A DNA stretch of 64,000 nt from a phage. The translations under genes were made by a program, and so were the position numbers. Below are positions 8,018-53,276 of the stretch, in pieces (the stretch's first letter is position 1; every line of letters begins with the position of its first letter). The DNA is taken from the sequence record PZ386977.1; one strand, written 5' to 3'. The notes beneath the pieces were generated by a model. It was given only the letters and a program-made list of their open reading frames with translations, made no database searches and was not told the origin of the DNA.

Positions 8018-9118
8018 TTACGCTGTGAAGATTTTATCCCACATCGCAACAACTGCATCTCGGTTATACTTCTTCCATACTGCTTCAGCACGTTTAACTC
8101 TAGCTTCGTATGTGTCAGTGAATTCTAATACAGCTTTTGTGTAAAGCGCAACTACTTCTTTCTTAGGAGTAGAGGAATCAATTTCTACACGCACAGTATC
8201 TGGGTCATATTCGAATGTCGCGTGCGGATAATCCTTAAAAACTAACTGAATCACAGGGACACCTTTAGAGATGGCTTCAATAGAACTATTCTCTACTGTA
8301 CCTGTGTCAGGACACGTATTGATAAGTGCTTTAGCTGTTTTAAGACGTTCCATGATTTCACTGTGTGGAGCATCAATAATAACAGGATATTTAGCTGGCG
8401 GTGCCCATTTACTAGGACAGTATCCTGCACCGTTTTCGCCTAGTGCTTTAATCGCTTCAAGAGCAACATCAGTACGACGCATCTTAGTGTCATAACGTTG
8501 AGCACTAATAATCAGATCAGTCGCTGGAAGAACTTCAGGTTTCTCATTCAAACAAATAACCGGATAATCTTCGGCTTCAAACAACGGATTTGCTCGCCAA
8601 TAATCATAATCAATTTTGTCAGTCAGACCTGAAGTCATATAACAATATTTGCGTTCAAATTCACGGAAGGCTTTAGTAGGAGCATAACTCTTGCCACCAT
8701 TCTTATGAATTTGAATAGTCTGGTCCCAAATTTGAACAATGCCACGAGATACCGGTTCAAATGGTGTTGCCATAAAATTCTTATGAACTTTAGAGAGACC
8801 TGCGTCTTTAATTGCCTGAACGGTTAGTTTGGTCGGTTCCATTGTAACAACGAAATCGTACTCATTGATGCCGGCTAGTTCAACAATCTTACGAGCCATA
8901 GTATAACTCATACCTAGACTGAATTTAGTCAGACGACCAACAGGATGATGATTAACCTTCCAGTCACCAAACGTGTCATTATCAAAGCCGATATAATCAA
9001 TATCAGCACCGATGGACACAAGATATTTCAACACATTTAAATGTACCGCTTCAAGACCACCTTGTACACGTTCTGGGTTAAATGGGACTGCGCGAGATGG
9101 GATAAACATAACTTTCAT
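8018..9118 (-). CDS. GT-B fold glycosyltransferase (GT4-like), candidate DNA hmC glycosyl/arabinosyl-transferase
   Basis: 366 aa; N-terminal MKVMFIPS...ERVQGGLEAVHLNVLKYL and C-terminal TGTVENSSIEAISKGVPVIQ resemble GT4 family motifs; occupies the rIIA-39 interval. Confidence 0.7.
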   Translation of the reverse strand: MKVMFIPSRAVPFNPERVQGGLEAVHLNVLKYLVSIGADIDYIGFDNDTFGDWKVNHHPVGRLTKFSLGMSYTMARKIVELAGINEYDFVVTMEPTKLTVQAIKDAGLSKVHKNFMATPFEPVSRGIVQIWDQTIQIHKNGGKSYAPTKAFREFERKYCYMTSGLTDKIDYDYWRANPLFEAEDYPVICLNEKPEVLPATDLIISAQRYDTKMRRTDVALEAIKALGENGAGYCPSKWAPPAKYPVIIDAPHSEIMERLKTAKALINTCPDTGTVENSSIEAISKGVPVIQLVFKDYPHATFEYDPDTVRVEIDSSTPKKEVVALYTKAVLEFTDTYEARVKRAEAVWKKYNRDAVVAMWDKIFTA

Positions 9119-23288: not shown

Positions 23289-23948
23289 TTAACCTCGATT
23301 CATAAATGCATTAAATATTTGGTCATCAACAGAAATTTCTAATTCGACTTCAATTGCTTCAGCCTTTTCTTCAGGTGGTAATTCGTATCCACATACTACA
23401 ATTTTTTCATCGATATCAAAATATACAGAAGCAATATGATTAATGTTATTTTCAGTTAAGTCTAAATCAACATCAACATCTTTTTGACCTACACTTAAAG
23501 GATAACTAATACGGGTTATTTTATTATCTTTAACAAAGAGTCCACCAACATACTCTGTACTACGTTTGAAGTTTACACGTTTCCGAATTGAAAGATATGA
23601 TACATCTTTACCGTGAGCTCGGCTCATAGGACATAATGAATAACTAGAATAAGAGATGTCAAATCCTACGCCTTCAACATGTGCTAGAGTATCATGAGTA
23701 AACCAATTATAGTCGTATGCCAAATCCATTAAATTATAATATGTGAAAGGCACAGGATTAACGTCATACGTTGTACCTTTAAAATCTGCCCAGGCAACGA
23801 TTTCGTTATCTTTAACAATTACAAAAATTACACCAATATGGTATCCGTTATTATTTTCATTCGGCGTTATATTATAACATTGTGCATTAGGAAATTTACC
23901 ATATTTAAATGGCGCGTTTTTGTGCATGTAATAAATCATATTATTCAC
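23289..23948 (-). CDS. hypothetical protein (219 aa)
   Basis: ATG ORF. Confidence 0.5.
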   Translation of the reverse strand: MNNMIYYMHKNAPFKYGKFPNAQCYNITPNENNNGYHIGVIFVIVKDNEIVAWADFKGTTYDVNPVPFTYYNLMDLAYDYNWFTHDTLAHVEGVGFDISYSSYSLCPMSRAHGKDVSYLSIRKRVNFKRSTEYVGGLFVKDNKITRISYPLSVGQKDVDVDLDLTENNINHIASVYFDIDEKIVVCGYELPPEEKAEAIEVELEISVDDQIFNAFMNRG

Positions 23949-24297: not shown

Positions 24298-24546
24298 TTA
24301 TTCTTTTTCGCGAATAATAATTACTTGTTGAGGCTGCTGAGCGGATTTCTTTTCGGCAACGATAGACCAAATTAAAGTTCCAATCCAACCAATCATCGTC
24401 CAGTTAAAGAGTAAAGATACAAAGAAGATTGCTGTTGTGCTTTTTGTGCCACGAATAAGTGCGATTACCCAAGGCAACATGTAAATGATGATTGAACCAA
24501 TACCTGCGATTAAAACTGCTACTGAACTAGCTACAAATAATTCCAT
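24298..24546 (-). CDS. small inner-membrane protein (82 aa)
   Basis: two predicted TM helices. Confidence 0.5.
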   Translation of the reverse strand: MELFVASSVAVLIAGIGSIIIYMLPWVIALIRGTKSTTAIFFVSLLFNWTMIGWIGTLIWSIVAEKKSAQQPQQVIIIREKE

Positions 24547-24574
24547 GTTAATTTCCTCTTGATTTGTTATGTTT

Positions 24575-24604
24575 ATAATATCTTGTTTTAACTTTGGTGT
24601 AAAC
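24575..24604 (-). promoter_or_regulatory. early promoter (GTTTAC-18-TATTAT)
   Basis: hexamers upstream of RBS AAGAGGA. Confidence 0.5.
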
Positions 24605-24607
24605 CAA

Positions 24608-24976
24608 TTAATTAAATTTGTTTAAACGTTCAATACACTGGACGTAGTTATTAGCGATTTGTTTCTGGGAAGGCTCTTTACCAGTTGTTTCAACATAGCG
24701 AATGAATGCGATTTCAGTAGCCTGTAAGCAATGTTCTTTAACGCGTTGTTCTTTTGTCAATGCTACAGTATCAGAATCACGATAACGTTGAGCATGGGCA
24801 TCAGCTTGAATCATTCGATTACCTACAGTAACTGGGTCTTCCACTTCAACTTTAGGTTGGTTGTACTGTTTAACATTCGGGTTATAAATCAATTGGCCAA
24901 CATTATTAGGGATAAAGCCATGGGCACCACATCCGGTTAATCCAAATACCATTGCTAAAGCGATTAATTTTTTCAT
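24608..24976 (-). CDS. putative lipoprotein (122 aa)
   Basis: signal peptide with lipobox LTGC (MKKLIALAMVFGLTGC). Confidence 0.55.
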   Translation of the reverse strand: MKKLIALAMVFGLTGCGAHGFIPNNVGQLIYNPNVKQYNQPKVEVEDPVTVGNRMIQADAHAQRYRDSDTVALTKEQRVKEHCLQATEIAFIRYVETTGKEPSQKQIANNYVQCIERLNKFN

Positions 24977-28089: not shown

Positions 28090-29233
28090 GGTCGTTTTCT
28101 ATATCTGCTGCAGACGGAGCATCAGAAGCTTTAACCGGAACTTTAGTTGTTGCTTTGCAATTAATAAGGTCGTTAACAGCGTCATCAACTTCTTTAATAG
28201 AAGAGATAGCACCTAGTTTATATTTAGTTTCAATTGCATCTCGGAAAGGTTTGTGTTTAAACAACGGTCCCCAGAATTCTACACAATCAGTAGCTTTAGC
28301 ACGCCACGATTTCTCTTCACGAATCATTTCACCTGTTTCTTCGTCAAGGAATTCACGAGCATACCAACCAGCTTTAGGCTTAACAACAAATCCAATTTCA
28401 GTTGCCATTTCTAACAAGCCACTGAATGGGTCGATACCGCCATCAAAATTAACCGTGATCGGGAAAGTAGATTTCTCTTTAACTGTACGAGATTTTTCTG
28501 CTTTCAACGTGAAGTCATAACCGGTCAATTCTGTACCTTCTTTAACCTGACGTTTAGAGATAAAGAATACAGTGTTAGCAGAGTAAAGAATACCTGTACC
28601 ACCACCCATAATCTCTTTAGGATATAGTCCGCCTATTTCCATTGCTGTATGGTTGATTGCAACACACGGAATATCTTTAATAGTCAGATAAGGAGTCACA
28701 ATACGGAACAGAGATTTAAGTGCCTTAGCACGAGACATATCACCTACGACTTTCTCGTTCAATGCATCTTCGGTTTCTTTCTTAGATGCAGTATTACCGA
28801 TTGAATCGATAAAGATAATAACTTTATCACCGCGTTCAATAGCGTCAAGCTGATTAGTCATATCAACTTTAAGTTGTTCGACAGATTGAATCGGAGTATG
28901 AACTACACGGTCTAAATCGACACCCATTGAACGAAAATAAGATTCTGAAGCACCGAATTCCGAGTCATAAAACAAACAGATTGCATCTTTATATTTCTTC
29001 ATATACGCTGCAACCATAGTCAGTCCAAACAATGTTTTAAAATGTTTAGAAGGTGCAGCAAAAATAGTCAAGCCTGATTGCAATCCTGCATTCAGAGCAC
29101 CACCTAGTGCGATATTCAACATCGGAATACGAGTAGGGACTTCATCACGATTATTAAACAGCTTAGACTTAGTCAAGTCTGCAGTCATTTTAGAAGTAGA
29201 AGCTTTAATCAGACGAGATTTTAAATCAGACAT
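28061..29233 (-). CDS. uvsX: UvsX recombinase (RecA/Rad51 family)
   Basis: 390 aa; Walker A-like TIFAAPSKHFKT and RecA core; size and synteny with T4 UvsX. Confidence 0.85.
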   Translation of the reverse strand: MSDLKSRLIKASTSKMTADLTKSKLFNNRDEVPTRIPMLNIALGGALNAGLQSGLTIFAAPSKHFKTLFGLTMVAAYMKKYKDAICLFYDSEFGASESYFRSMGVDLDRVVHTPIQSVEQLKVDMTNQLDAIERGDKVIIFIDSIGNTASKKETEDALNEKVVGDMSRAKALKSLFRIVTPYLTIKDIPCVAINHTAMEIGGLYPKEIMGGGTGILYSANTVFFISKRQVKEGTELTGYDFTLKAEKSRTVKEKSTFPITVNFDGGIDPFSGLLEMATEIGFVVKPKAGWYAREFLDEETGEMIREEKSWRAKATDCVEFWGPLFKHKPFRDAIETKYKLGAISSIKEVDDAVNDLINCKATTKVPVKASDAPSAADIENDLDEMEDFDE

Positions 29234-29286
29234 TGTATTTTTCCATAGGCATCATTATATTTTACTCATGTTTAAAAGATAAGACG

Positions 29287-29311
29287 ATTATATACTAAGG
29301 GTTATACAGCA
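29287..29311 (-). promoter_or_regulatory. candidate MotA-dependent middle promoter for uvsX
   Basis: minus strand TGCTGTA (one mismatch to MotA box TGCTTTA), 12 nt, TATAAT. Confidence 0.3.
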
Positions 29312-29331
29312 TTTAAAACTTTAAATGGCTC

Positions 29332-29880
29332 TTAACGAGCCCATTTGATGATTTCTGTAATCAAACCATTACGTTCGCTTGCATTAAATCCTATAACTTT
29401 GTTAGCACCATCATGATTAAGTAATTGATACGTTTGGATTTTGTTATGAATTGCAAACTCTTCAAAATGTGAAATGACTGTATTAAAACCGAATGAAGAC
29501 AAAGTAATAAGGTCGTCTTCAAAACTTTCAGTCATTTCGTTACGTGTTAAAATAATTGTGAACACATCATGGTTTTGGCAAAGACGAACATAATCCTGCT
29601 CATAAACATCAAGAACAGAGTCCGCATCTTGTCGAATACGTCCATAAACCCAGTTACTAATATATCCACGGTCTAACAGATAAATCTTAGTAGGGTCTAA
29701 ATAATTCAACATCGTTTCGAAACAGCCAACTTCATTTCTAGACTTAACATCGAAACGTCCATCAACTGTTCGTTTAGGGAAATCAATCTTTACATATCTT
29801 TCACTAATTTCCATTATGTCATTAATGAAAGTTGTTTTACCAGCATTATCCGGGCCATCTACTAAAATAATTTTAGCCAT
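29332..29880 (-). CDS. P-loop kinase-like protein (nucleoside/nucleotide kinase fold)
   Basis: 182 aa; Walker A GPDNAGKTT and LDRGYIS (DRY-like motif of dNK/TMPK kinases); located in the T4 beta-gt interval. Confidence 0.55.
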   Translation of the reverse strand: MAKIILVDGPDNAGKTTFINDIMEISERYVKIDFPKRTVDGRFDVKSRNEVGCFETMLNYLDPTKIYLLDRGYISNWVYGRIRQDADSVLDVYEQDYVRLCQNHDVFTIILTRNEMTESFEDDLITLSSFGFNTVISHFEEFAIHNKIQTYQLLNHDGANKVIGFNASERNGLITEIIKWAR

Positions 29881-29881
29881 T

Positions 29882-30781
29882 TTATTCCTCGATTACGACA
29901 TCTTCGTATTTAGGTATATTATACGGTGAAGAAATTAAAGCATTAAAGTAGATGAACTCACCAAGACCTGGATGGAATACTTCTTCAGGATTTTCGAAAT
30001 ATTGAATCTTCGGACGTCCTTTAAGAATTTGATAGTACTCAGTTTTAGTTGGATTAAAAATTCGAATCAGCGCTTCTTCAGGATACTTATTTCTGTCGAA
30101 ACTATTATTTGGATCAGTTATATAAAGCGGTTGACCTAATTGAATTGCGCATTCAACCACTTGTTCAAAACGATAGCATGGGTCACTAATTCGAAATGGA
30201 TGAAAAATACCATCTAGATGAATAGGAGCCAAATCACCTACAAGACGCTGCATGACGGAAGGACATATAACTTTCTGCGTTACGATAATCTTATTACCAT
30301 CTGCACCTGCGTTAACCAGCACTTCTTTTTGACGTTCATTCAACACAGTAGTTTGAAGTGAACGATTAACAGACAACATGTCGGTTTTTAAGAATTCATC
30401 AATATAAAAACGTGGTTTATTAGGGTCTGCAGTGATATTGAAATTGAATTCTACGTCAAAAGCGCCATCATATCCAGTGATATCTGTGATTAGAAAATCA
30501 CAATCATAATAAGCAATTAATGAATCAACCACAAATTCATTTTCAGACCAGAAATATTTACGAGTGTTATACGCGTTATCTTTATACCATAATGGAACAA
30601 ACTTAAATTCTGGGAAAAGACGTTCACATTCTTTAATATCAGATGCATTACGTGGATATGTAATCACATCACCTGGATTAGCACGGTGCAAATGAAGTTG
30701 GAAGTTGCCATCCTTAAGGATGGCATACTGTCCAGTTTCATAAGACCGCATACTCAAGATTGGTACGCGGAAAATAGCCAT
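29882..30781 (-). CDS. hypothetical protein (299 aa) in the beta-gt slot; candidate DNA sugar-transferase
   Basis: ATG ORF translationally coupled (TAATG) to gene 42; no recognisable motif; positional inference only. Confidence 0.5.
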   Translation of the reverse strand: MAIFRVPILSMRSYETGQYAILKDGNFQLHLHRANPGDVITYPRNASDIKECERLFPEFKFVPLWYKDNAYNTRKYFWSENEFVVDSLIAYYDCDFLITDITGYDGAFDVEFNFNITADPNKPRFYIDEFLKTDMLSVNRSLQTTVLNERQKEVLVNAGADGNKIIVTQKVICPSVMQRLVGDLAPIHLDGIFHPFRISDPCYRFEQVVECAIQLGQPLYITDPNNSFDRNKYPEEALIRIFNPTKTEYYQILKGRPKIQYFENPEEVFHPGLGEFIYFNALISSPYNIPKYEDVVIEE

Positions 30782-31497
30782 TAGTCAAGGAATCCTTTAA
30801 CATAATCAAAATCACGTTCAAACACATGGGCACTTACCATGGTATGAGTATAATCACCAACTTCTACACCGCATTCGTTAGCGATATAATGAAGTAATTT
30901 TCCTTGGAGATAAAAATCCAACTGCATAACAACAGCACAGTTCTGAGAACGCATATGACAGTGGGTATAAAGCTTACCATCACGAATATAATAAGTTACT
31001 GAGTCAGTACATGGATATTCAAGTGTTTCGTCCGAATCAAGCAAAGCCTGATCAGAACTTTCTAGAATTTGGAACACAACTCTTCGAGAGTTAGGTTTTT
31101 CTTTAAGTTCTTTTAGAAGAGTTGGTAATTGGGCCGCAATGCGAGGACCATAGAAAGTGTTGAAGTTCGCCGGCAAAACATCTGATTTTGGTTTAGAAAT
31201 AAATTTAGCGACATTAGGATATGCCTTAAACGCTTCTTCTGCGTTGGTACCACCAGAAATCATAAACTTCCAGAAGTCTTCGGCATATTCATAAGAGATG
31301 CGGTTAATACGTGGGTCGGTCATTTTGAATGATGACGGATTGTCAACAACTACTGTCATGGACCCAATTTCATTACAACGTCCAATACGAGAATCAGTTA
31401 CGAATTCCGGGTTTTCTAAAATTTCACGATTGACTGCTTTAAATGCGGTTTGAAAATCTGCGGCTTTGATATATTTCATTGTGTTATGTTTTCCCAT
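30781..31497 (-). CDS. 42: dCMP hydroxymethylase (thymidylate-synthase family)
   Basis: 238 aa; PCTDSVTYYIRD and MRSQN motifs typical of TS/dCMP-HMase fold; position matches T4 gene 42. Confidence 0.7.
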   Translation of the reverse strand: MGKHNTMKYIKAADFQTAFKAVNREILENPEFVTDSRIGRCNEIGSMTVVVDNPSSFKMTDPRINRISYEYAEDFWKFMISGGTNAEEAFKAYPNVAKFISKPKSDVLPANFNTFYGPRIAAQLPTLLKELKEKPNSRRVVFQILESSDQALLDSDETLEYPCTDSVTYYIRDGKLYTHCHMRSQNCAVVMQLDFYLQGKLLHYIANECGVEVGDYTHTMVSAHVFERDFDYVKGFLD

Positions 31498-31516
31498 GTT
31501 TACCTCAATACAATTT

Positions 31517-31542
31517 ATTATATACTCGATTCGTAAAGCTTA
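31517..31542 (-). promoter_or_regulatory. candidate MotA-dependent middle promoter for gene 42
   Basis: minus strand AAGCTTTA (MotA-box-like), 11 nt, TATAAT, about 20 nt before ATG. Confidence 0.4.
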
Positions 31543-31779
31543 TTTGAATTTCTTGGCAGTGTTGATATACCGTAAAGCTTCAGCATCGATACTTCCAAGA
31601 ACACTATGAAGAAATGCATCAGCGTAGTATTCCAATTGAACAGGTTCTTTAATCACTTTAGCCGCTTTGGTTTCAAACAGGCCCATAAGGGCCTTTTTAA
31701 GAATTTGTTCGTTAGTGTTCAGTTTAATAGTCAAAATCTCTTCATTAAGTTGATGATTAAAAGTTTTTCTAGAAATCAT
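31540..31779 (-). CDS. hypothetical protein (79 aa)
   Basis: ORF coupled (ATGA overlap) to the upstream 386-aa gene; not membrane-like, so not Imm. Confidence 0.45.
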   Translation of the reverse strand: MISRKTFNHQLNEEILTIKLNTNEQILKKALMGLFETKAAKVIKEPVQLEYYADAFLHSVLGSIDAEALRYINTAKKFK

Positions 31780-32936
31780 TCCGGGTACCTCAGAGCGTCA
31801 TCAGAGTTAGTTATATCAATAATAGATATAGAGTTTTCTGCTAACCCGTTTTTAGATAATTGACGTTTATAATATCTTTCACAATATGTACACGTTGATC
31901 CGCAGATTTCATTAGCACAATCAAAATCTGGATGTCTGAACCACCTTTTTTCTAAAAAGCCATCTAACAAAGAGGTTTCAATATTTACTGTATGTGAAAA
32001 CTCGGTCTCGTTTTCAAGAGTGAAAATGGTCTCTAAAGGCTTCCACAGTTCTAACAAATTACCTTCAAACTTTTCAGAAGCATAAGCTTCAAGAACTTTC
32101 AAAATGTAGTCGGTGCTACCTGTACGTCCTGAAACTTTGAATTGAGTGATACCAATATCATTATAAAGTTTCAAATCTTGAGGACGAACAAAACGAGTTC
32201 TCAACCAGTTAAATGGGTCTGTATCACGAGCTTTAATACAGTGCTGCATTGGATATCCGTTTAAGGATTTAGCATCATCAGCTGTAACATCAGTACTATG
32301 GAAAATATAGCAAGAGTCACGATAGCTACAATGTGTTGTATACCCTTTACCAGCATTAGAACAGAACTCATTTACAAGAACTTCAAATATTATATTGTTC
32401 TTATTGCAAAACTCTGCTGCACGCTTCAGGAAAGAAACTGAACGGTTCTTATGAATTCCGCAACAGACTTTTTTGATGTTATATTGGTCGTGCAAGTATT
32501 TGATTTGAGTTACAGCATCGACATGTAGAATTGTTGAAACTTCAATCTCAATGTCTTTATTGACTTCACGAACAATTTCCATAACAACAGGGTTAGCGAT
32601 AGTAATACGCCATACGCCTATTGACCAAAGATACTGAACATAATCCTGAATAGCTTTCTTCTTCCACTCGACTAGTTCTCTTTTTGAACCAGGATTTATC
32701 GTGTTGAGTGTATAGTTAAAGCAAATACCTAATTCGTTACAACGTTTAACGTAATCTTCTAACATCTTTTTGTCAACGTCAGGAAGCCTAAAATCAGGTC
32801 TGGCTGCTACAAAAGCCATTTCTCTTGTAGAGCCATATACTTCGTTTATCAAGCTATTAGGATAGGTTTTATTGAGCTCTACGATTTTATCAAGAAGAGC
32901 TAAATCAAAATTCGTTCCGATTTTAAAAGTATTCAT
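31776..32936 (-). CDS. Cys-rich hypothetical enzyme (386 aa), part of the modification cassette
   Basis: C-terminal cluster CANEICGSTCTYC plus further conserved Cys; no confident family assignment. Confidence 0.55.
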   Translation of the reverse strand: MNTFKIGTNFDLALLDKIVELNKTYPNSLINEVYGSTREMAFVAARPDFRLPDVDKKMLEDYVKRCNELGICFNYTLNTINPGSKRELVEWKKKAIQDYVQYLWSIGVWRITIANPVVMEIVREVNKDIEIEVSTILHVDAVTQIKYLHDQYNIKKVCCGIHKNRSVSFLKRAAEFCNKNNIIFEVLVNEFCSNAGKGYTTHCSYRDSCYIFHSTDVTADDAKSLNGYPMQHCIKARDTDPFNWLRTRFVRPQDLKLYNDIGITQFKVSGRTGSTDYILKVLEAYASEKFEGNLLELWKPLETIFTLENETEFSHTVNIETSLLDGFLEKRWFRHPDFDCANEICGSTCTYCERYYKRQLSKNGLAENSISIIDITNSDDALRYPE

Positions 32937-32993
32937 TTTTTTGCATCTCGCGTTAATTGATGCGATGGTTTTTTGCAGGTCTTACTTAAATTA

Positions 32994-33380
32994 TTATAGA
33001 TTCGGTTTATATGATTTAAATGTTTCGAATTCGCCTTTATTCATAAGAGCTTTGAATTCGTCAGGACGCATAGCTTTGTCGTCGATAATCCAATCATATA
33101 CTGGTTTATGTGTTAGCAAATTATGGTACTTCAAGCCAATGTTTGCCAAGTTCTGAATCAGACTTGGGAGAATGTCAATTGCTATACGTCCAGGACCTAC
33201 TGACTTCATACCACGAGCAGTGTAAAGCGTTATGGTGTGCCCTGCATCATACAGGGCATTAATGGCGGACACCATTTCGACGTCTGGTTTGAAGTTCACA
33301 TAATCACGATTGTTATTCCATTCCGTGATGCAATCATCGACATCAAAACAAAGATTAAGCATGTTTTCTACACGGTGCAT
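32994..33380 (-). CDS. small HAD-superfamily phosphatase (capless, KdsC-like)
   Basis: motif I FDVDDCITEW, motif II ITLYTARG, motif III/IV K...WIIDDKA; start trimmed to ATG overlapping upstream stop. Confidence 0.55.
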   Translation of the reverse strand: MHRVENMLNLCFDVDDCITEWNNNRDYVNFKPDVEMVSAINALYDAGHTITLYTARGMKSVGPGRIAIDILPSLIQNLANIGLKYHNLLTHKPVYDWIIDDKAMRPDEFKALMNKGEFETFKSYKPNL

Positions 33381-35065
33381 TAGATTCGTTCCCATTGATG
33401 AGTGATATCGCCACCGATTGGACGATAGGAAACACCAGTTTCTTTATCAGTTAGTACCCATTTACCAGGATTTTTTGTAATCAGAGTAGCCGTTACAGGT
33501 TCTGCTACGTCATAACTAATAGAGCCATCTTGAAGTACACGGCCCATGTTACGTAATTGCTTAGTCAGAAGTTCCATACCTTTATAATATGCGGCTACCG
33601 CTTTAAGTGGATTATTCTTGAAATAACCACCTAATGCAATCCAGATAATTGCTACTGCCAAATGATGATACTCGTTAAACGAACTCATCTTTCCATATTT
33701 GTAAACTAATGGATTGATGTTAATAGTCACATTACAAGTTGTTTCATCAATAATAAACTGACCCCAGGTCGGATTAGCATTGAATTCATCATAACCTGAA
33801 ACAGCATAAAGCACTTTAGCTTCATCATACAATTTTGGCCCGTAAATCTTGGTTTCACCAAAATATCCACGAGGGTCGATAAACTTGACTTCGCCGTTAT
33901 CAGTAATCATAGTATTACTGAAGTTCGGGTCACCATGAATAACAGAGTACTGTCCCTGAGAACGGTTATGATAACGAATAAGATGTTCTAAAGCTTGTTT
34001 CAACATTGGCTTCAGACGTCCAATCTTAGTGTAGTTCACGTGTGTGATTTTACCAAATGAATCAATCAATGGCTGAATGCTTTCACAACGATCAATAACT
34101 TTCGTATAGAACTCTTTAGTGAAATCACGGCGAACAGTTTCAGGACTTACAAAATAAGTGTCTGTGCTGAATTTCAGTGCATCTAAAATTGCATCAACAA
34201 TTTGTGGACGAGCAAGACTTGATTTGGATTTAATATATTCAAATGCCGGCTTACCTTTAATACGTTCCATTTCAAAGTTATTTTCATTAACAGAAACTAA
34301 CTGAGGGACTGAATCTGATTTCACTTTCAAATACCATGAAATCTCATCTTTCTGAAGAGCTCGACCCTGTTCGGTTAATGCGAATTTAGTTACAGTTTCT
34401 TCACCAATTTCAACTGCATTAAAACTACGATTAAGTTCACGAACTTCATGAGCTTTTTCAAGTTTAGGCATATCACCTAAATCAATTATATTCATAAGCT
34501 CTGATTTATTGAATGCGCCGCTGTAAAGGAATTCTACGAAATCACGTCCTTTGCAGTATTCATGAATTTCCTCATCAGTAGAACCCATATAGAATTCCCA
34601 GTCTTTGAACTGATAAATTCCTACAACATTACCACCTGTTGAACCTACGTTAGTGATATTTTCACCATCGAAATTATATCGACATTCATCACCCTTAACA
34701 TAGATTGCGTTAACATTCCAAGACCATGAACCAAAGTCAGGAATAATATCACACCAGTTAACAATTACGTTATGGCCATCTAAATCTTTGTATAATTTAG
34801 CAAGAGCATAAGCAGAACCATACGCTTCATCAACTGTACGAATAGTCACATTGAACCCTTCTTGCTCGCAATAAGCTCGAACAGTTTCAGCAAATTTTGA
34901 ATGAACTACTACAATAATTTCATCTGCGCCAAGGTCAGAATAAATTGTATACAAATTGCTCAGAATAGTGTCTTGTTTATAGTTAACAAGCACCTTAGGA
35001 ATATGGTGCGTTATTGGATACAAACGAGTTGCCAGTCCAGCACCAAGAATAACAGCTTTTTTCAT
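33380..35065 (-). CDS. bifunctional sugar-1-phosphate nucleotidyltransferase (N-terminal) / sugar kinase (C-terminal, APH/choline-kinase fold)
   Basis: 561 aa; N-terminal AVILGAGLATRL and GSAYAL motifs; C-terminal HGDPNFSNTMI and FIDPRG kinase motifs. Confidence 0.65.
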   Translation of the reverse strand: MKKAVILGAGLATRLYPITHHIPKVLVNYKQDTILSNLYTIYSDLGADEIIVVVHSKFAETVRAYCEQEGFNVTIRTVDEAYGSAYALAKLYKDLDGHNVIVNWCDIIPDFGSWSWNVNAIYVKGDECRYNFDGENITNVGSTGGNVVGIYQFKDWEFYMGSTDEEIHEYCKGRDFVEFLYSGAFNKSELMNIIDLGDMPKLEKAHEVRELNRSFNAVEIGEETVTKFALTEQGRALQKDEISWYLKVKSDSVPQLVSVNENNFEMERIKGKPAFEYIKSKSSLARPQIVDAILDALKFSTDTYFVSPETVRRDFTKEFYTKVIDRCESIQPLIDSFGKITHVNYTKIGRLKPMLKQALEHLIRYHNRSQGQYSVIHGDPNFSNTMITDNGEVKFIDPRGYFGETKIYGPKLYDEAKVLYAVSGYDEFNANPTWGQFIIDETTCNVTININPLVYKYGKMSSFNEYHHLAVAIIWIALGGYFKNNPLKAVAAYYKGMELLTKQLRNMGRVLQDGSISYDVAEPVTATLITKNPGKWVLTDKETGVSYRPIGGDITHQWERI

Positions 35066-35106
35066 GTTGTGGTCCTCATTGGTAAGTAGGTGTATTGTAC
35101 ACTATT

Positions 35107-35250
35107 CTAGTTAAAGCATTCATACTTTGCTTGTAGCCCAATCATAATCCATCCGATTATAAGAGTCGGAATCATTACTGGAGCCGTTAAGCTCCAGTAG
35201 ATAGTCATGACAAGCATCAATAGTAAAAGTCCTATTGTTATTGCTTTCAT
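35107..35250 (-). CDS. small hydrophobic peptide (about 47 aa)
   Basis: MKAITIGLLLLMLVMTIYWSLTAPVMIPTLIIGWIMIGL; ATG overlaps isomerase stop (ATGA); below ORF-track cutoff. Confidence 0.35.
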   Translation of the reverse strand: MKAITIGLLLLMLVMTIYWSLTAPVMIPTLIIGWIMIGLQAKYECFN

Positions 35251-35882
35251 TGTTCGCCTCGTAACATGGCACCTAGTGAACCGCCTGGATGGAACTTAAG
35301 GAAGTCATTAGAGGTAAATCCACGTTCAGACGAAAGGTTGATAGCGAACGTATCGATAAGCGCTAACAACAATGTAGTGGACATGGTCGGAGCCAGAGAA
35401 TTCTCATCAACCTCTACCGCGATGCCTGTACAGAACGTATAATCAAAAAGAGCTTCGTATTCTTGCGGAATGTCAGGGTTACAATGTAACAGAATCTGTT
35501 TAACCTGAGGACGAATCATACGAAGATGTTTAGCAACACCTATCATTTCTTCAGTCTTACCAGAACGACTGATGTGAACTAATACATCATTAGGTGCAAT
35601 AAATCCTGCGTCGCCATGAGAATAATGCCCGGTGTTCAAATACATGCTAGGAATACCTAGTGAAGCAAAAGTCTCGGAAGCTTTAGTTGCGATATTAGCG
35701 TTCTTACCAACACCTGTAATAATTACTCGGCTTTCATAATTACTCAGTCCAGGGCGACGAAGAGTTTCAAGAATAGCATTATATCGGGCAGAGTTTTGAC
35801 TAATTACTTTAGCCATAGTGGCAAGAGATGAAGCTTGTTTTACGATTGCGTCAATAGCGATAGTGATTGGTGTAGTTTTCAT
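35247..35882 (-). CDS. D-arabinose-5-phosphate isomerase (SIS domain, KdsD/GutQ type)
   Basis: 211 aa; ITGVGKNANIATKASETFASLGIPS...SHGDAG and HISRSGKTEE match the KdsD SIS-domain core. Confidence 0.7.
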   Translation of the reverse strand: MKTTPITIAIDAIVKQASSLATMAKVISQNSARYNAILETLRRPGLSNYESRVIITGVGKNANIATKASETFASLGIPSMYLNTGHYSHGDAGFIAPNDVLVHISRSGKTEEMIGVAKHLRMIRPQVKQILLHCNPDIPQEYEALFDYTFCTGIAVEVDENSLAPTMSTTLLLALIDTFAINLSSERGFTSNDFLKFHPGGSLGAMLRGEQ

Positions 35883-35922
35883 ATTTCTCTCATTTAATTA
35901 GTTTACCGTCCATGGCATTATA

Positions 35923-38634
35923 TCAAAAATCGAACATATCGAACAGAGATGCTTTCTTCTCGTAATCGAGTTTCGCTGCTGATGTGAATCCTTCAAGTGG
36001 TTTAATAAATGTCTTCTCAAGGAGAACAGTGTAGTCCATCCAATGAAGTACGTCGTCTTTAATTAAATCTGTGATTTCAGTACCAGAAGGCCATGCGATA
36101 CATTTATCACCGAATGGGTTTCCTTCACGTAAAGGCAGAACATATACCTTTTCGCCTTCTACAACTTGTGGAGCATCAATATTACCTTTGATAGCCCGGT
36201 TATACGTCAGAATTCCACGAATATGGAACGGACATTTTGGACCAGGGAATCCACCTACATCATATTTAGCAATGTTATTCGCAGAAGATACCGACGCGAT
36301 GCTAATATAATTCAATTGACGGAATTCTTTTTCAAACTCTTTAAAATATTCTTGTAATGATTCTTCACCTTCTTGAAGCATACGACGAATACATTCTTTA
36401 AGAGCTTTCTGTACCGCTTTAGGAGTTGAAGATTTCTGTGTTTCGAGACCCATGATTTTGAGTTTAGGCTCAGCGTAACGAGTACCTTCCATATCCCACA
36501 CGTTTAATGCGTAACGTTTCTTACCAGTCCAGAATCCACCAATACCTTTAGAGCCAAGTGGAGGACCAGCGATAGCTTCTCGGTCCATGAACATTAAGTG
36601 TTGTTTATTGTTCATGTATTCACACATTTCACGGAAACCTCTATCAATAGCAGGTTCCATACGTTCACGAGCGAACTTATCTAAGAAGTCCACCCAATGG
36701 TTGGTATCACGGAATTTAGATTCACCAACCTTATCAATAATTTTATCAGCAGATACGTAAATAGAGTCTGTATCACCATATAGAACGAAAGCTTCACCTT
36801 CTGTACCACAAACTTCATTCAGATATTCATTAACTTTACGTTCAATCCACTGTAAAGCCATTTGCCCGAATGTTGTGATTGCAGTAGCATTACGCAAATC
36901 ATAATAACGGAACCAAACGTTGCCAAGTGCACCATAAAGTGAGTTGATAAGCAATTTACGGTTAATTTGTGCAGTCATACCTGCAACTTCAGTACGTTGA
37001 GCTCTAAACAACATTTCATTAAGAGATTTAGCAGACAACTTTTTAATCTTTTCTTTAATCTCATCGCTGAAGTCGAAACGATAATCAACATCTAACGGTT
37101 CGTCAACAGAAAGATTAGGATTATGCAATGCCTCTTTAATTATTTCACCATTACGTTGAGCTGCAAGCATGTAACCTTTATGTTCTTTACGTTGATTAAA
37201 GACCTTAGTGATTTCAGTTGGAACTACACCATCACGGTCTTTATAATACATCATGCCATTAGGAGAGCAGCTGTACACATCTGAAGGACGTTCAGCGATT
37301 GCGTTAATATAATCATGCAATGGAGCTACTTTAAACGTTCCTGCTATTGTTTCTGGGCTAATATTCACTTGGCGAATAATACTTGGATACAGAGATGTAA
37401 GGTCGAAACTCATTACATATTTGTATCGATTTGGAATAGGTTCCTTAACAAAAGCGCCAGGATAAGGTTGAACCGGGTGAGAACGACCTTGTGGAATCAC
37501 CTTGTTCTGCTCTTTAAGGCTATTAAAAATAATAGCATCCCATGTTTTAATTGGGCTGAACACAGATTGAATCTGTATCTTAGCATAATAACCCATGTCC
37601 AAACTCAAGTTGATGAACTGGCGCTTAGCATCAATTTGCAATACACGATACACGTCGATGATGTTATAAGAAATATATCGTTGGTGATTGCTTTCACGAA
37701 GCTTAGAAATAGGGCCGTCATATTTCAGTTTACCAACGTTCAATTCAAATTCTGAAATGTAATCCAGAGAATACGACGGTTGATTAGTAAAAGAGAATTT
37801 TTTGTAAAGGTCAATGTAATCAAGAACAGAGATACCGAACAATGTAATGATTTCACGAGAACCATACATGTTTTCGATAACTTTAACACGAGTTTTACGA
37901 TGTGGTGATAAACGTTTCGCAGTAGATTCACCAAAAATATTCTTGATTCTGTTATACACATATGGAATATCAAATGACTCAACGTTCCATCCAGTCAAAA
38001 TGACAGGAGTTTTCTGTTGCCAGAAGTTGAGATATTCCATCAACAATTCTTTTTCGTTATCGAACGGCATATAAATGATTTTATCGATAATTTCAGATGG
38101 AACTTCATCACCACCTTGTTCTTGAAGCTTAGCAGCGATTTCAATAGACCATTCTTCCACATTGCCGTATGGAGAATTCAATAGATCAAATACATAGAAC
38201 CTGTCGTCAATTGAGTCATAATGGGTGATAGCATCAATCGGATGTTTTGCTTGTGACGGCTCAGGGAACCCATCCGGAGATGTTACTTCGATGTCGAAGT
38301 TAGCCACACGAATTTTTGTATGGTCGTATTTGATTTCATAGTTATAAGTGTCAGACAAATACGCCAATTTGAAATCGTCCATGCCAAGTGCTTCAAGTCC
38401 GATATCTTCCATGCGTTTAATCCATTGGGAGGCATCACGCATATTAGCGAACAACTTACGAGTACACGGCTTACCGTAGATATCGAAATATTTCGTGGCC
38501 TGACTTTCTGGACAATGAGCAAACAATGATGGTTTATATTCTACTTCACGAGTACGTTCACGGCCATTAGAATCGATGTAACGTTCAAAAATTGAATCAC
38601 CAATCTGTTCAACCGTTAAGTAAAATTCTTTCAT
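35923..38634 (-). CDS. 43: DNA polymerase (family B)
   Basis: 903 aa; exo motifs FDIE and YNIIDV, pol motifs DLTSLYPS and YGDTDS; sequence is RB69-like from memory. Confidence 0.95.
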   Translation of the reverse strand: MKEFYLTVEQIGDSIFERYIDSNGRERTREVEYKPSLFAHCPESQATKYFDIYGKPCTRKLFANMRDASQWIKRMEDIGLEALGMDDFKLAYLSDTYNYEIKYDHTKIRVANFDIEVTSPDGFPEPSQAKHPIDAITHYDSIDDRFYVFDLLNSPYGNVEEWSIEIAAKLQEQGGDEVPSEIIDKIIYMPFDNEKELLMEYLNFWQQKTPVILTGWNVESFDIPYVYNRIKNIFGESTAKRLSPHRKTRVKVIENMYGSREIITLFGISVLDYIDLYKKFSFTNQPSYSLDYISEFELNVGKLKYDGPISKLRESNHQRYISYNIIDVYRVLQIDAKRQFINLSLDMGYYAKIQIQSVFSPIKTWDAIIFNSLKEQNKVIPQGRSHPVQPYPGAFVKEPIPNRYKYVMSFDLTSLYPSIIRQVNISPETIAGTFKVAPLHDYINAIAERPSDVYSCSPNGMMYYKDRDGVVPTEITKVFNQRKEHKGYMLAAQRNGEIIKEALHNPNLSVDEPLDVDYRFDFSDEIKEKIKKLSAKSLNEMLFRAQRTEVAGMTAQINRKLLINSLYGALGNVWFRYYDLRNATAITTFGQMALQWIERKVNEYLNEVCGTEGEAFVLYGDTDSIYVSADKIIDKVGESKFRDTNHWVDFLDKFARERMEPAIDRGFREMCEYMNNKQHLMFMDREAIAGPPLGSKGIGGFWTGKKRYALNVWDMEGTRYAEPKLKIMGLETQKSSTPKAVQKALKECIRRMLQEGEESLQEYFKEFEKEFRQLNYISIASVSSANNIAKYDVGGFPGPKCPFHIRGILTYNRAIKGNIDAPQVVEGEKVYVLPLREGNPFGDKCIAWPSGTEITDLIKDDVLHWMDYTVLLEKTFIKPLEGFTSAAKLDYEKKASLFDMFDF

Positions 38635-50991: not shown

Positions 50992-51462
50992 TTAATCATG
51001 TTTCCACACCCCATCGGTATTTGACCAAAGTCGCTGATTATCTGATCCTCGCCACAGCTTTTTGGTCGGAAGACTTTTCTCATACTTCCCATCAATAATA
51101 ACATCAACATATTTAAGCATTTCTAGTTGTTTAATATCTTCAAACTTATATCCTGTCCACAACCAAATGCTTTTATTGGGATAAAGATTTTTTACTGTTT
51201 GAACAATGCAATGAACAACATCTCGGTTATCAGGATAGAGAGGGTCTCCTCCGGTTATAGTAAATCCTTCTATATAATCATTATTCAAACATTCAATTAA
51301 TTGTTCTAGTGTCTCTCCAGTGAATGGAGCACCATTTCTAGCGTTCCATGTTGATTTATTATAACACCCTTCACATTTATGCAAACAACCTGTAACGAAA
51401 AGAACGACCCTACAACCAGGGCCATTCACAAAATCGCAAGGATAAAATCTATCATAATTCAT
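50992..51462 (-). CDS. nrdG: anaerobic ribonucleotide reductase activating protein (radical SAM)
   Basis: 156 aa; radical-SAM Cys motif (CLHKCEGC); adjacent to nrdD. Confidence 0.8.
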   Translation of the reverse strand: MNYDRFYPCDFVNGPGCRVVLFVTGCLHKCEGCYNKSTWNARNGAPFTGETLEQLIECLNNDYIEGFTITGGDPLYPDNRDVVHCIVQTVKNLYPNKSIWLWTGYKFEDIKQLEMLKYVDVIIDGKYEKSLPTKKLWRGSDNQRLWSNTDGVWKHD

Positions 51463-53276
51463 TGGTGTTTAACCCTATGCATGATTTCTTTATTTTTACC
51501 GAGATTAAATCCGCGCTCGTTCGGATTTCCAAGATAACCGCATGTTCTTCTTATGGTGTTCATCTTTTTAGGATCAGTTTCTCCGCAAACTGAACAAACA
51601 AATCCATTTTCGGTAGGAGTCATTTCATGGGTACTTCCACATGTAAAACATTTATCTACTGGCATATTAACACCAAAATAATCTAAATGTTGTGCAGCAT
51701 AATCCCAGACAGCCTCAAGACCTTTTAGGTTATTTTTCATATCAGGAAGTTCAACATAAGAAATGTGACCACCTGTCGCAATGAAATGATATGGCGCTTC
51801 ACGAGAAATCTTTTCAAACGGAGTAATATTTTCTTCTACTGAAACGTGGAAACTGTTAGTGTACCAGCCTTTATCGGTAACATCCTTTACACTTCCATAT
51901 TTTTCTGTATCGAGTTTACAGAAGCGATAACAAAGGTTTTCAGCAGGAGTCGAATATAAACTAAAAGCAAATCCAGTTCTTTCGGTCCACTGTTTAAGAT
52001 GAGCATTCATTTTAGTTAAAATTTCCTGTCCAATATCACGACCGACAAGAATATTCAATTCATGAATACCAATGTATCCTAAAGACACTGAACTTCTACC
52101 GTTTTTAAATAACTCAATTATATCATCATCAGGTTTAAGACGAACCCCGAATGCACCTTCTTGGTAAAGAATAGGAGCAACAGTCGCTTTAACACCCTTT
52201 AAAGAACTAATTCTACACATCAAGGCTTCAAAACACAGATCCATTCGTTCATTAAACAACTCGATAAATTTCTGTTCATTGAACTGTGTTCCAATATAAG
52301 AATCTAATGCGATGCGAGGAAGATTCAGCGTTACAACACCGAGATTATTACGTCCATCAAGAATTTCATTACCAGTCGAATCTTTCCATACGCTCAAGAA
52401 ACTACGGCAACCCATTGGAGAAACTGGAACTGAAGAACCGGTAATAGCTTTATTATTCTTAACCGAAATAATGTCAGGATACATTCTTTTGCTTGCGCAT
52501 TCTAACGCAAGTTGTTTAATATCATAGTTCGGATCATCTTTATAAAGATTAACACCTTCTTCAACAAACATAACAAGTTTAGGAAAAATAGGAGTTATTC
52601 CATCACGACCAAGACCTTTAATGCGGTTTTTAAGAATTGCCTTCTGAATAATTCGTTCAGTCCAGTCAATTCCCGTACCAAATGTAATTGTTACAAAAGG
52701 CGTTTGTCCGTTTGAACTAAAGAGAGTATTTACTTCGTATTCATAAGCTTGGAATGCGTCATAGACATCTTTTTCTGTTTTAGATTGAGCATAATTCAAC
52801 GCATCAGCGATTTGCCATTTTTCTGCATCTTCAACATGTTTAGCGTATGTGCGTTTAACATAAGGAGAAAGTACTTTATCTACATTAGCAAAAGTCGTTC
52901 CGCCATACTGGTGTGAAGCAACTTGTGCGGTAATTTGTGCCATAATTGCAGTAGCAACTCCAATTGATTTAGGAGTTTCAATTTGAGCATTACCTAGCTT
53001 AAATCCGTTCTCAAGCATTCCTTTTAAATCTACTAAACAACAATTAGTAAATGGAAGAGCAGGAGAATAATCAATATCATGAAAATGAATAATTCCGCTT
53101 TCATGCGCTTTCATAATAAAAGACGGGACCATATTTTTGGCAATGTGTTTAGACACAATACCAGCCATAAGGTCCCGTTGAGTTGGAAAAACACGAGAAT
53201 CTTTATTAGCATTCTCGTTTAAAAGGTCTTTATTAGTTTTATGAATCAATCCTTCAATTTCTTTTTCAATTGTCAT
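51459..53276 (-). CDS. nrdD: anaerobic ribonucleoside-triphosphate reductase, uninterrupted
   Basis: 605 aa; C-terminal zinc-ribbon Cys and glycyl-radical region (TCGY); continuous ORF. Confidence 0.85.
   Translation of the reverse strand: MTIEKEIEGLIHKTNKDLLNENANKDSRVFPTQRDLMAGIVSKHIAKNMVPSFIMKAHESGIIHFHDIDYSPALPFTNCCLVDLKGMLENGFKLGNAQIETPKSIGVATAIMAQITAQVASHQYGGTTFANVDKVLSPYVKRTYAKHVEDAEKWQIADALNYAQSKTEKDVYDAFQAYEYEVNTLFSSNGQTPFVTITFGTGIDWTERIIQKAILKNRIKGLGRDGITPIFPKLVMFVEEGVNLYKDDPNYDIKQLALECASKRMYPDIISVKNNKAITGSSVPVSPMGCRSFLSVWKDSTGNEILDGRNNLGVVTLNLPRIALDSYIGTQFNEQKFIELFNERMDLCFEALMCRISSLKGVKATVAPILYQEGAFGVRLKPDDDIIELFKNGRSSVSLGYIGIHELNILVGRDIGQEILTKMNAHLKQWTERTGFAFSLYSTPAENLCYRFCKLDTEKYGSVKDVTDKGWYTNSFHVSVEENITPFEKISREAPYHFIATGGHISYVELPDMKNNLKGLEAVWDYAAQHLDYFGVNMPVDKCFTCGSTHEMTPTENGFVCSVCGETDPKKMNTIRRTCGYLGNPNERGFNLGKNKEIMHRVKHQ

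Follow-up and report, generated by a model that had tools for sequence, protein, structure and literature searches.

How is 5-hydroxycytosine to be made for the DNA of a phage in the anoxic intestine, when its sole known hydroxylase needs O2? This question is raised by a gene cluster in the phage sequence record PZ386977.1, of which a stretch of 64,000 nucleotides (nt), hereafter the window, was analysed. Between positions 31776 and 35882, on the minus strand and next to the DNA polymerase gene, a cassette encodes a SIS-domain isomerase, a fused nucleotidyltransferase/kinase (AfhE), a HAD phosphatase (AfhF) and a Cys-rich protein of the U32 family. We propose that this cassette probably combines two modules of a DNA hypermodification that ends in arabinosyl-5-hydroxycytosine: a known one that makes the sugar donor, and an inferred one, directed at the acceptor base, that includes the U32 protein. 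With somewhat less assurance, we favour U32 (the RB69 gp50 family) as a prephenate-dependent, O2-independent C5 hydroxylase of deoxycytidylate or of cytosine in DNA, which would be a specific and testable answer to the question above. The cassette as such is a known system on which several papers have appeared since 2018; the new element is the role predicted for U32, which we have seen in no accessible paper.

The window belongs to a Mosigvirus and is a member of the system known from RB69 (gp45-gp55 and gp3), from HY126 with its Afh enzymes, and from Bas46/47, LC53 and DLP3. Its DNA polymerase is identical to that of RB69 at 902 of 903 residues, the stretch shares 97-98% DNA identity with more than 150 Mosigvirus genomes, and RB69 gp45-gp56 match its proteins at 94-99.9% identity, the cassette corresponding to gp50-gp55. 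The same genes stand in the same order as in RB69 and in HY126, also a Mosigvirus, with protein identities of 94-100%. The window differs from RB69 in that AfhE and a glycosyltransferase, both split in the RB69 reference record, are intact single open reading frames (ORFs) here; the RB69 splits have been attributed to sequencing errors (PMC13326640, PMC6024577). It differs from HY126 by an ORF of 79 amino acids (aa) that is truncated there and full length here. The four ORFs of the original prediction were found at their places on the minus strand, and profile searches (Pfam, NCBIfam) agree with the classes it gave to three of them: a SIS arabinose-5-phosphate isomerase, a fused nucleotidyltransferase/kinase and a capless HAD phosphatase. 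Its view that the cluster supplies activated arabinose for the modification of DNA cytosine in an RB69-like phage matches the published pathway. It could not confirm a biochemical assignment of the ORFs; they have been assigned, save for the U32 protein and two small conserved ORFs that it had overlooked (47 aa at 35107-35250 and 79 aa at 31540-31779).

The chemistry of the base is decided by a homologue of ThyA encoded just downstream of the cassette (30781..31497, minus strand), the equivalent of RB69 gp48 and a predicted 5-hydroxy-deoxycytidine monophosphate (5-hydroxy-dCMP) synthase using flavin and O2. Relative to E. coli ThyA, this protein carries N at D169, D at N177 and E at L143. D169N, together with N177D and L143E, is the published signature of 5-hydroxy-dCMP synthases (PMC13326640), and T4 gp42 keeps D169. 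The homologue is 98.3% identical to RB69 gp48, 97.1% to its HY126 counterpart and 24.8% to T4 gp42. Lee et al. (2026) showed that gp48 turns dCMP into 5-hydroxy-dCMP, with flavin mononucleotide bound and the oxygen derived from 18O2 (PMC13326640). Mono- and di-arabinosyl-5-hydroxy-deoxycytidine have been demonstrated in virion DNA of RB69, NP and others; nuclear magnetic resonance (NMR) and mass spectrometry (MS) placed the sugar in an ether link to 5-hydroxycytosine, and the assignment to 5-hydroxymethylcytosine (hmC) was called erroneous (PMC13326640, PMC13390438). The predicted base of the window is thus 5-hydroxycytosine, and its ThyA homologue would not be a dCMP hydroxymethylase. This departs on two counts from the original prediction, which had named hmC as the base, where the published one is 5-hydroxycytosine O-arabinosylated at C5 (PMC13326640, PMC13390438), and had taken the neighbouring protein, which is 25% identical to T4 gp42 and has N at position D169 of E. 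coli ThyA, for a dCMP hydroxymethylase.

Two putative DNA arabinosyltransferases would then place arabinose from UDP-arabinofuranose on 5-hydroxycytosine in DNA. The first (299 aa; 29882..30781, minus strand) occupies the slot of T4 beta-gt and is the equivalent of RB69 gp46:47, an ORF split in RB69 whose two parts it matches at 97.8-99.1% identity; its role was proposed in Table 1 of PMC13326640. The second (8018..9118, minus strand), between rIIA and gene 39, is the equivalent of RB69 gp3 (ORF003c) and shares 362 of 366 residues (98.9%) with RB69p003. A Pfam search with this protein gave no match, and its role is taken from PMC6024577 and from Table 1 of PMC13326640. Both T4 glucosyltransferase genes had been described as absent, and this holds for the window: tblastn found no match to alpha-gt or beta-gt anywhere in it, syntenic slots included. 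Next to the first arabinosyltransferase, a P-loop nucleotide kinase resembling thymidylate kinase (182 aa; 29332..29880, minus strand; RB69 gp45 equivalent) matches the thymidylate kinase family phrog_761 (5.7e-45), is 98.9% identical to RB69 gp45 and presumably phosphorylates the modified deoxynucleoside monophosphate.

On the sugar side, SIS, AfhE and AfhF constitute the published UDP-arabinofuranose donor pathway, and reading them as donor genes is correct but already known. In 2018, Thomas et al. detected arabinose in the DNA of RB69, then assigned as arabinosyl-hmC; for UDP-arabinose synthesis they put forward ORF055c (SIS) and the fused ORF53_52c, and for the transfer ORF003c (PMC6024577). 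The SIS protein of the window (211 aa; 35247..35882, minus strand; RB69 gp55 equivalent) matches Pfam SIS at 38.8 bits, and the Pfam matches for SIS, NTP_transferase and Peptidase_U32 are all above their family cut-offs. It also matches NCBIfam KpsF/GutQ (TIGR00393; 1.1e-31) and the KdsD model (9.5e-30, residues 48-207), covering only KdsD positions 47-202 of 328 and scoring under the curated full-length cut-offs. Indeed, it lacks the tandem C-terminal CBS domains of the full-length KdsD/GutQ architecture (about 320 aa), and retains GVGK and SRSGKT loops. It is 95.7% identical to RB69 gp55 and 96.7% to the HY126 protein, and its role as arabinose-5-phosphate isomerase was proposed in PMC6024577 and PMC13326640. 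The AfhE-type protein (561 aa; 33380..35065, minus strand; RB69 gp52:53 equivalent; 96.6% identical to HY126 AfhE) carries an NTP_transferase domain at residues 3-99 (38.4 bits), weak APH/fructosamine-kinase matches at 350-405 and, in this kinase half, an HGDPNFSN (HxDxxxxN) loop at 377. The AfhF-type HAD phosphatase (128 aa; 32994..33380, minus strand; RB69 gp51 equivalent) is identical to the HY126 protein at 128 of 128 residues and matches NCBIfam TIGR01689, the EcbF-BcbF capsule-biosynthesis phosphatase family (4.3e-13), and weakly HAD-SF-IIIA. Its motifs, read from the sequence as D13-V-D15, T54, K92 and D100-D101, fit within 128 aa, which makes it capless. The ORF list offers an alternative upstream ATG at 33395; 33380 is favoured because of the TAATG by which the HAD start overlaps the AfhE stop, an upstream GGGAA element and the RB69 and HY126 annotations.

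For HY126, the work of He et al. (2026), as cited in PMC13326640, has AfhE convert arabinose-5-phosphate to the 1,5-bisphosphate, AfhF strip the 5-phosphate and AfhE yield UDP-arabinofuranose. In the window, the SIS isomerase would accordingly supply arabinose-5-phosphate from ribulose-5-phosphate, the C-terminal kinase of AfhE would phosphorylate C1 to give arabinose-1,5-bisphosphate, AfhF would convert this to arabinose-1-phosphate and the N-terminal nucleotidyltransferase of AfhE would complete UDP-arabinofuranose. Phosphorylation of C1 thus precedes 5-dephosphorylation in the published order, the reverse of the dephosphorylation and C1 re-phosphorylation first suggested for this locus. Three T4-like loci (L009, PhiKpNIH-6; L008, Biddle_MM4; L010, Pm5461) hold AfhE, HAD, kinase, U32 and glycosyltransferase genes and no SIS gene beside the polymerase; these phages presumably obtain arabinose-5-phosphate through KdsD or GutQ of the host.

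What, then, does the U32 protein do? This 386-aa protein with 13 Cys (31776..32936, minus strand; RB69 gp50 equivalent), a predicted Fe-S protein, matches Pfam Peptidase_U32 at 42.2 bits (cut-off 22.4). Its AlphaFold2 model (predicted local distance difference test score 91.3) adopts a TIM-barrel fold whose best PDB match is a U32 protein, 5d88, with a template-modelling score of 0.71 on the target. Foldseek returned 5d88 and generic TIM barrels only, and a sequence search against PDB chains gave no match at E<=1, so that no solved U32 hydroxylase helps. The family includes RlhA, TrhP and UbiU/UbiV, Fe-S enzymes that carry out O2-independent hydroxylations needing prephenate (PMC10990095, PMC6599085, PMC5727448); for UbiU/UbiV, prephenate is the demonstrated oxygen donor. 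When the phage U32 family was compared by hhalign with single E. coli sequences, RlhA was the best match (77%, E 2e-5), and UbiU, UbiV and TrhP were weak. Identity to the E. coli U32 hydroxylases is about 10-20%, and the phage protein is shorter, without the C-terminal extensions of RlhA and TrhP. The profile alignment places E190, C203 and C209 opposite RlhA E161, C169 and C176; the Glu and both Cys of this U32 signature are essential in RlhA for the formation of 5-hydroxycytidine in rRNA. Ten Cys are invariant in 42 U32 sequences (C158, C177, C192, C203, C209, C233, C340, C345, C349 and C352). The phage proteins have a C-terminal CX4CX3CX2C cluster of their own and enough Cys for a 4Fe-4S centre, the register of the cluster ligands differing between the MAFFT and hhalign alignments. 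With a dN/dS of 0.015-0.019, U32 is under the strongest purifying selection among the large genes of the cluster. From genus to genus it also varies much less than the genes around it: U32 is 86% identical in Klebsiella phage PhiKpNIH-6, AfhE is 43.5% identical in related Klebsiella phages of similar size, and the values for Thanatos are about 82% (U32) and about 54% (AfhE). This suggests either an unusually tight constraint or a recent exchange of U32 among T4-like phages.

Several phages keep the sugar route and have no U32. Dhakavirus QL01 carries imm, a lipoprotein-like ORF related to T4 imm.1, AfhE, HAD, kinase, the ThyA homologue and a glycosyltransferase, and lacks U32. Among the matches listed, Acinetobacter phages likewise have the isomerase/AfhE/AfhF/glycosyltransferase set without it: AfhE was found in 374 phage records, 57 of them from Acinetobacter phages, and U32 in 222; at most 3 of the 57 could have U32, and none does among the organisms listed. 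DLP3, whose cluster is also without U32, makes tri-arabinosyl-5-hydroxycytosine (PMC13326640). Since QL01, the Acinetobacter phages and DLP3 retain the route without it, U32 would stand outside the sugar pathway, into which the original prediction had drawn the Cys-rich protein.

In other T4-like phages, U32 has a different partner. The ORF overlapping the U32 stop in LC53 (Serratia) and Entb_45 (Enterobacter) encodes an AroQ chorismate mutase (CM_2, 40.9 and 44.6 bits, cut-off 27). Such a gene follows U32 in 13 of the 15 T4-like IMG/VR loci and in 56 isolate genomes, from phages of Klebsiella, Serratia, Yersinia, Edwardsiella, Erwinia and Proteus and of five further host genera (Pectobacterium, Providencia, Morganella, Kosakonia and Shewanella). 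The phage chorismate mutases of LC53, Entb_45, NIH-6, Thanatos-2 and Pm5461 retain R11, R28, K39, E52, S84 and Q88 of the E. coli enzyme, and in Thanatos-2, where the order of the cluster is reshuffled, U32 and chorismate mutase are still paired.

Beyond these phages, U32 was followed with custom hidden Markov models (HMMs) through 41 IMG/VR loci (15 T4-like and 26 other viral), 9 metagenome loci and 7 loci from genomes or metagenome-assembled genomes (MAGs). The ThyA homologue is beside U32 in 15 of 15 T4-like loci, and no ThyA-family gene lies within 10 kb of U32 in any of the 42 non-T4-like ones (26, 9 and 7). U32 abuts an arabinosyltransferase homologue in 20 of the 26 other viral, 6 of the 9 metagenome and 3 of the 7 genome or MAG loci; these homologues match the 299-aa protein of the window (hhalign 98.9%, E 1e-17). 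A Tmk-like kinase is present in most non-T4-like loci, AfhE with or without SIS is often found, and a dCMP deaminase lies near U32 in several loci, overlapping it directly in L012. At L018, L019, L024-L026, L044, L048, L055 and L066, U32 accompanies the glycosyltransferase and kinase with no SIS or AfhE nearby. The glycosyltransferase thus occurs with the ThyA type only, with U32 only or with both, which is the pattern expected of two interchangeable hydroxylases. Moreover, a chorismate mutase, a DAHP synthase or a fusion of the two stands by U32 in 11 of the 26 other viral loci, in 3 of the 7 genome or MAG loci and in the metagenome locus L017, the DAHP synthase being identified at 237 bits. 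No chorismate mutase was seen in the first metagenome loci; the wider later census did find it. That enzymes forming prephenate recur beside U32 agrees with the known cofactor requirement of its family. The seven genome or MAG matches are named as Romboutsia (two), Lachnospiraceae, Erysipelotrichales, Phocaeicola, an unclassified Bacillota MAG and candidate division BRC1. Romboutsia, Lachnospiraceae, Erysipelotrichales and Phocaeicola are known as obligate anaerobes.

Some of these loci hold further genes around U32. At L052, L053, L054 and L063, a phage-encoded fusion, DAHP synthase carrying chorismate mutase at its C terminus, adjoins U32, a viral auxiliary route towards prephenate. A radical-SAM/SPASM gene recurs near U32 in the non-T4-like loci L012, L013, L019, L025 and L070, and in L013 and L070 it is followed directly by a second U32 paralogue, 22% identical to that of the window. 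The gene overlapping the U32 stop at L018 (8098-9000) and L049 (11062-11976) resembles TET-associated DNA glycosyltransferases, and L018 also holds a UDP-galactopyranose mutase and a dUTPase/dCTP-deaminase; in these two loci U32 may feed glycosylation with sugars other than arabinose.

Altogether, the acceptor module could work as follows. In air, the 5-hydroxyl would be set by the ThyA homologue acting on dCMP, the step shown in the literature; without O2, U32 would act on the same precursor as a second, O2-independent hydroxylase using prephenate. We infer that U32 would thus be an anaerobic 5-hydroxylase and a backup to the O2-dependent enzyme in phages of facultative anaerobes. That a dedicated kinase is present points to dCMP as its substrate. 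In the lineage of the window, the dedicated chorismate mutase would have been lost, and prephenate would come from host PheA or TyrA.

Several points weigh against this proposal. The hydroxylase activity of the phage U32 protein is deduced from sequence and context, DNA cytosine or another pyrimidine stands beside dCMP as a candidate substrate, and no member of the U32 family has yet been reconstituted in vitro. No chorismate mutase was found in the window with the phage HMM. The E. coli Dhakaviruses are without U32 although their host is a facultative anaerobe, so that U32 is not obligatory for this lifestyle. The absence of ThyA from the non-T4-like loci covers their 10-kb flanks only, the binning of phage contigs into MAGs is weak host evidence, and some loci are closely related, about eight to ten architectures representing fewer independent lineages than loci. 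Finally, the accessible papers hold nothing that links U32, chorismate mutase or prephenate to phage 5-hydroxycytosine, and He et al. (2026) and Mahler et al. (2025), known through papers that cite them, may already treat gp50.

Could all four proteins of the cassette instead form one NDP-arabinose pathway, running through free arabinose and serving arabinosyl-hmC beside a gene 42 dCMP hydroxymethylase? The enzyme classes fit, arabinosyl-hmC was the assignment of 2018, and Table 1 of PMC13326640 still words the route as 'Ara5P to Ara to Ara1P'. We nevertheless give this almost no credence: the ether link to 5-hydroxycytosine found by NMR and MS and a ThyA homologue that bears the 5-hydroxy-dCMP synthase signature at 25% identity to gp42 speak against hmC, the HY126 enzymes, as cited, pass through the 1,5-bisphosphate, and U32 is missing from phages with the same sugar genes. 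A narrower version keeps U32 on the sugar side, or in redox tailoring, as a 'sugar or heterocycle reductase' or as an epimerase in the synthesis of the arabinose donor. The former is the label of gp50 in Table 1 of PMC13326640, where it is given without discussion, an 'epimerase' appears among the sugar genes in PMC13390438, and both the TIM-barrel fold and the position of the gene between the phosphatase and the ThyA homologue would suit such an enzyme. This is very unlikely in our view, as the arabinose route is complete without U32 in DLP3, in QL01 and in the HY126 biochemistry as cited, as U32 sits beside glycosyltransferase and kinase genes in L018, L019 and other loci where SIS and AfhE are not nearby, and as pentose chemistry offers no reason for the tie to chorismate mutase and DAHP synthase.

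The remaining alternatives accept a hydroxylase and move its substrate. All known pyrimidine C5 hydroxylations by U32 enzymes are on tRNA and rRNA, and RlhA is the best E. coli match; U32, with chorismate mutase where present, might hence hydroxylate RNA as TrhP and RlhA do and tune translation, unrelated to DNA modification. Yet in about eight to ten architectures it consistently abuts an arabinosyltransferase homologue, the kinase, AfhE, dCMP deaminase and the replicative polymerase, it is without the C-terminal extensions of RlhA and TrhP, and the glycosyltransferase is accompanied by U32, the ThyA homologue or both, as interchangeable hydroxylases would be; we hold an RNA substrate to be highly improbable. 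Action on cytosine already in DNA (post-replicative and TET-like), or on another pyrimidine such as dUMP in place of dCMP, deserves more weight and is still unlikely. RlhA and TrhP act on polymers, the gene next to U32 in L018 and L049 resembles TET-associated glycosyltransferases, and dCMP deaminase genes lie near U32 in several loci, one of them overlapping it in L012. Against this, the Tmk-like kinase that accompanies U32 in most loci suggests a modified mononucleotide, and UbiU/UbiV show that the family accepts small molecules. T4-like phages destroy dCTP, so that DNA made anaerobically would need a hydroxylated precursor. A dCTPase is listed for RB69 (PMC13326640).

With U32 as the putative second hydroxylase of dCMP, the system can be set beside others. 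As in the glucosyl-hmC system of T4, dCMP is altered by a member of the ThyA superfamily before it enters DNA, where glycosyltransferases add the sugar, and the position between gene 43 and uvsX is shared. The base, however, is 5-hydroxycytosine and not hmC, and the hydroxylase uses flavin and O2 where the T4 enzyme uses folate. T4 draws on host UDP-glucose, whereas the window phage encodes its own donor synthesis, the donor sugar not being a host metabolite; it also has the U32 protein, and no homologue of alpha-gt or beta-gt in the window. Such a donor of their own lets RB69-like phages evade restriction and CRISPR. With E. coli RlhA (ho5C2501 of 23S rRNA), TrhP (ho5U34 of tRNA) and UbiU/UbiV (anaerobic ubiquinone), the phage protein shares the Pfam family and the signature Glu/Cys. 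In contrast to these, its genes are viral and part of modules for DNA modification, and its proposed substrate is a deoxynucleotide, which no U32 enzyme is known to use. An O2-dependent and an O2-independent enzyme for one product in one genome are known from TrhO/TrhP, UbiIHF/UbiUV and the T4-type NrdAB/NrdDG, and the likeness of the phage hydroxylases to these pairs comes from gene presence only (ThyA type only, U32 only or both). The window itself encodes NrdG (50995-51462, minus strand; 79% identical to T4 NrdG) and, at the place of NrdD, an ORF of 605 aa (51459-53276, minus strand), together an anaerobic ribonucleotide reductase, so that this phage is equipped for replication without O2.

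If the proposal is right, prephenate-dependent hydroxylation would extend from RNA and quinones to DNA precursors, and U32 would be the first enzyme of its family in DNA modification. Many phages, with gut groups known as strict anaerobes among their binned hosts, would have U32 as their sole hydroxylase, and the two hydroxylase types would have undergone non-orthologous displacement across phage lineages. This would bear on phage therapy and on growing such phages under gut-like conditions. A small soluble substrate would also make a tractable system for reconstituting U32 and prephenate chemistry in vitro.

Two small ORFs complete the cluster. The 79-aa ORF (31540..31779, minus strand; RB69 ORF049c equivalent), which overlaps the U32 stop by 4 nt and matches phrog_8601, a family of unknown function, holds the slot of chorismate mutase in other genera. 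A diverged chorismate mutase was considered and rejected: there was no Pfam match at E<=10 and the phage chorismate-mutase HMM scored -0.4, and the same HMM, run with filters off over all six frames of 31450-31850, returned nothing. In HY126 (L022, 9287-9409) a stop codon shortens this ORF to 40 aa, with all neighbouring genes intact; it is probably dispensable. The 47-aa membrane ORF (35107..35250, minus strand), with two hydrophobic segments, overlaps the SIS stop by 4 nt (ATGA) and matches phrog_3610, also of unknown function. It always lies between SIS and AfhE, and is 100% identical in HY126 and 61.7% in Serratia phage LC53. A shortened Imm was likewise rejected for this ORF, which has no significant similarity to T4 Imm.

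The true homologues of T4 imm and imm.1 lie at 24301-24546 and 24623-24970 (minus strand), with identities of 65% (imm) and 33% (imm.1). In T4, the interval between genes 43 and 42 holds imm.1 as well as imm, and not imm alone as had been stated; with homologues at 24301-24970, these T4 occupants of the interval have another place in this phage and are not lost. Every gene from 29.3 to 38.6 kb is on the minus strand: the polymerase gene (35923-38634) adjoins the SIS gene at one end, and uvsX, also on the minus strand, lies beyond the kinase gene at the other. The G+C content of the cassette matches that of its flanks, and a recent foreign insertion is rejected on this composition and on synteny kept across genera. 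The cassette genes are under purifying selection (dN/dS 0.00-0.06 against HY126 or Bas46). Translational coupling, claimed for the whole cassette, applies to three overlapping junctions (ATGA, TAATG and ATGA) and not to the SIS, AfhE, U32 and ThyA-homologue genes, which are preceded by gaps of 40-57 nt. A scan of 29000-36200 for sigma-70 promoters and terminators gave counts no higher than in shuffled controls. Just upstream of the AfhE start (35090-35128, minus strand), AATGCTTTA, 12 nt and TACAAT fit the T4 MotA-box middle-promoter consensus, as a match only, and an extended -10 element in the gap between polymerase and SIS genes (about 35905; TGATATAAT) is likewise a consensus match only. 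Elsewhere in the window, a gene for counter-defence against DarTG toxin-antitoxin systems (23289-23948, minus strand) encodes a protein of 219 aa, which scores 397.7 bits with Pfam AdfA (anti-DarT factor A).

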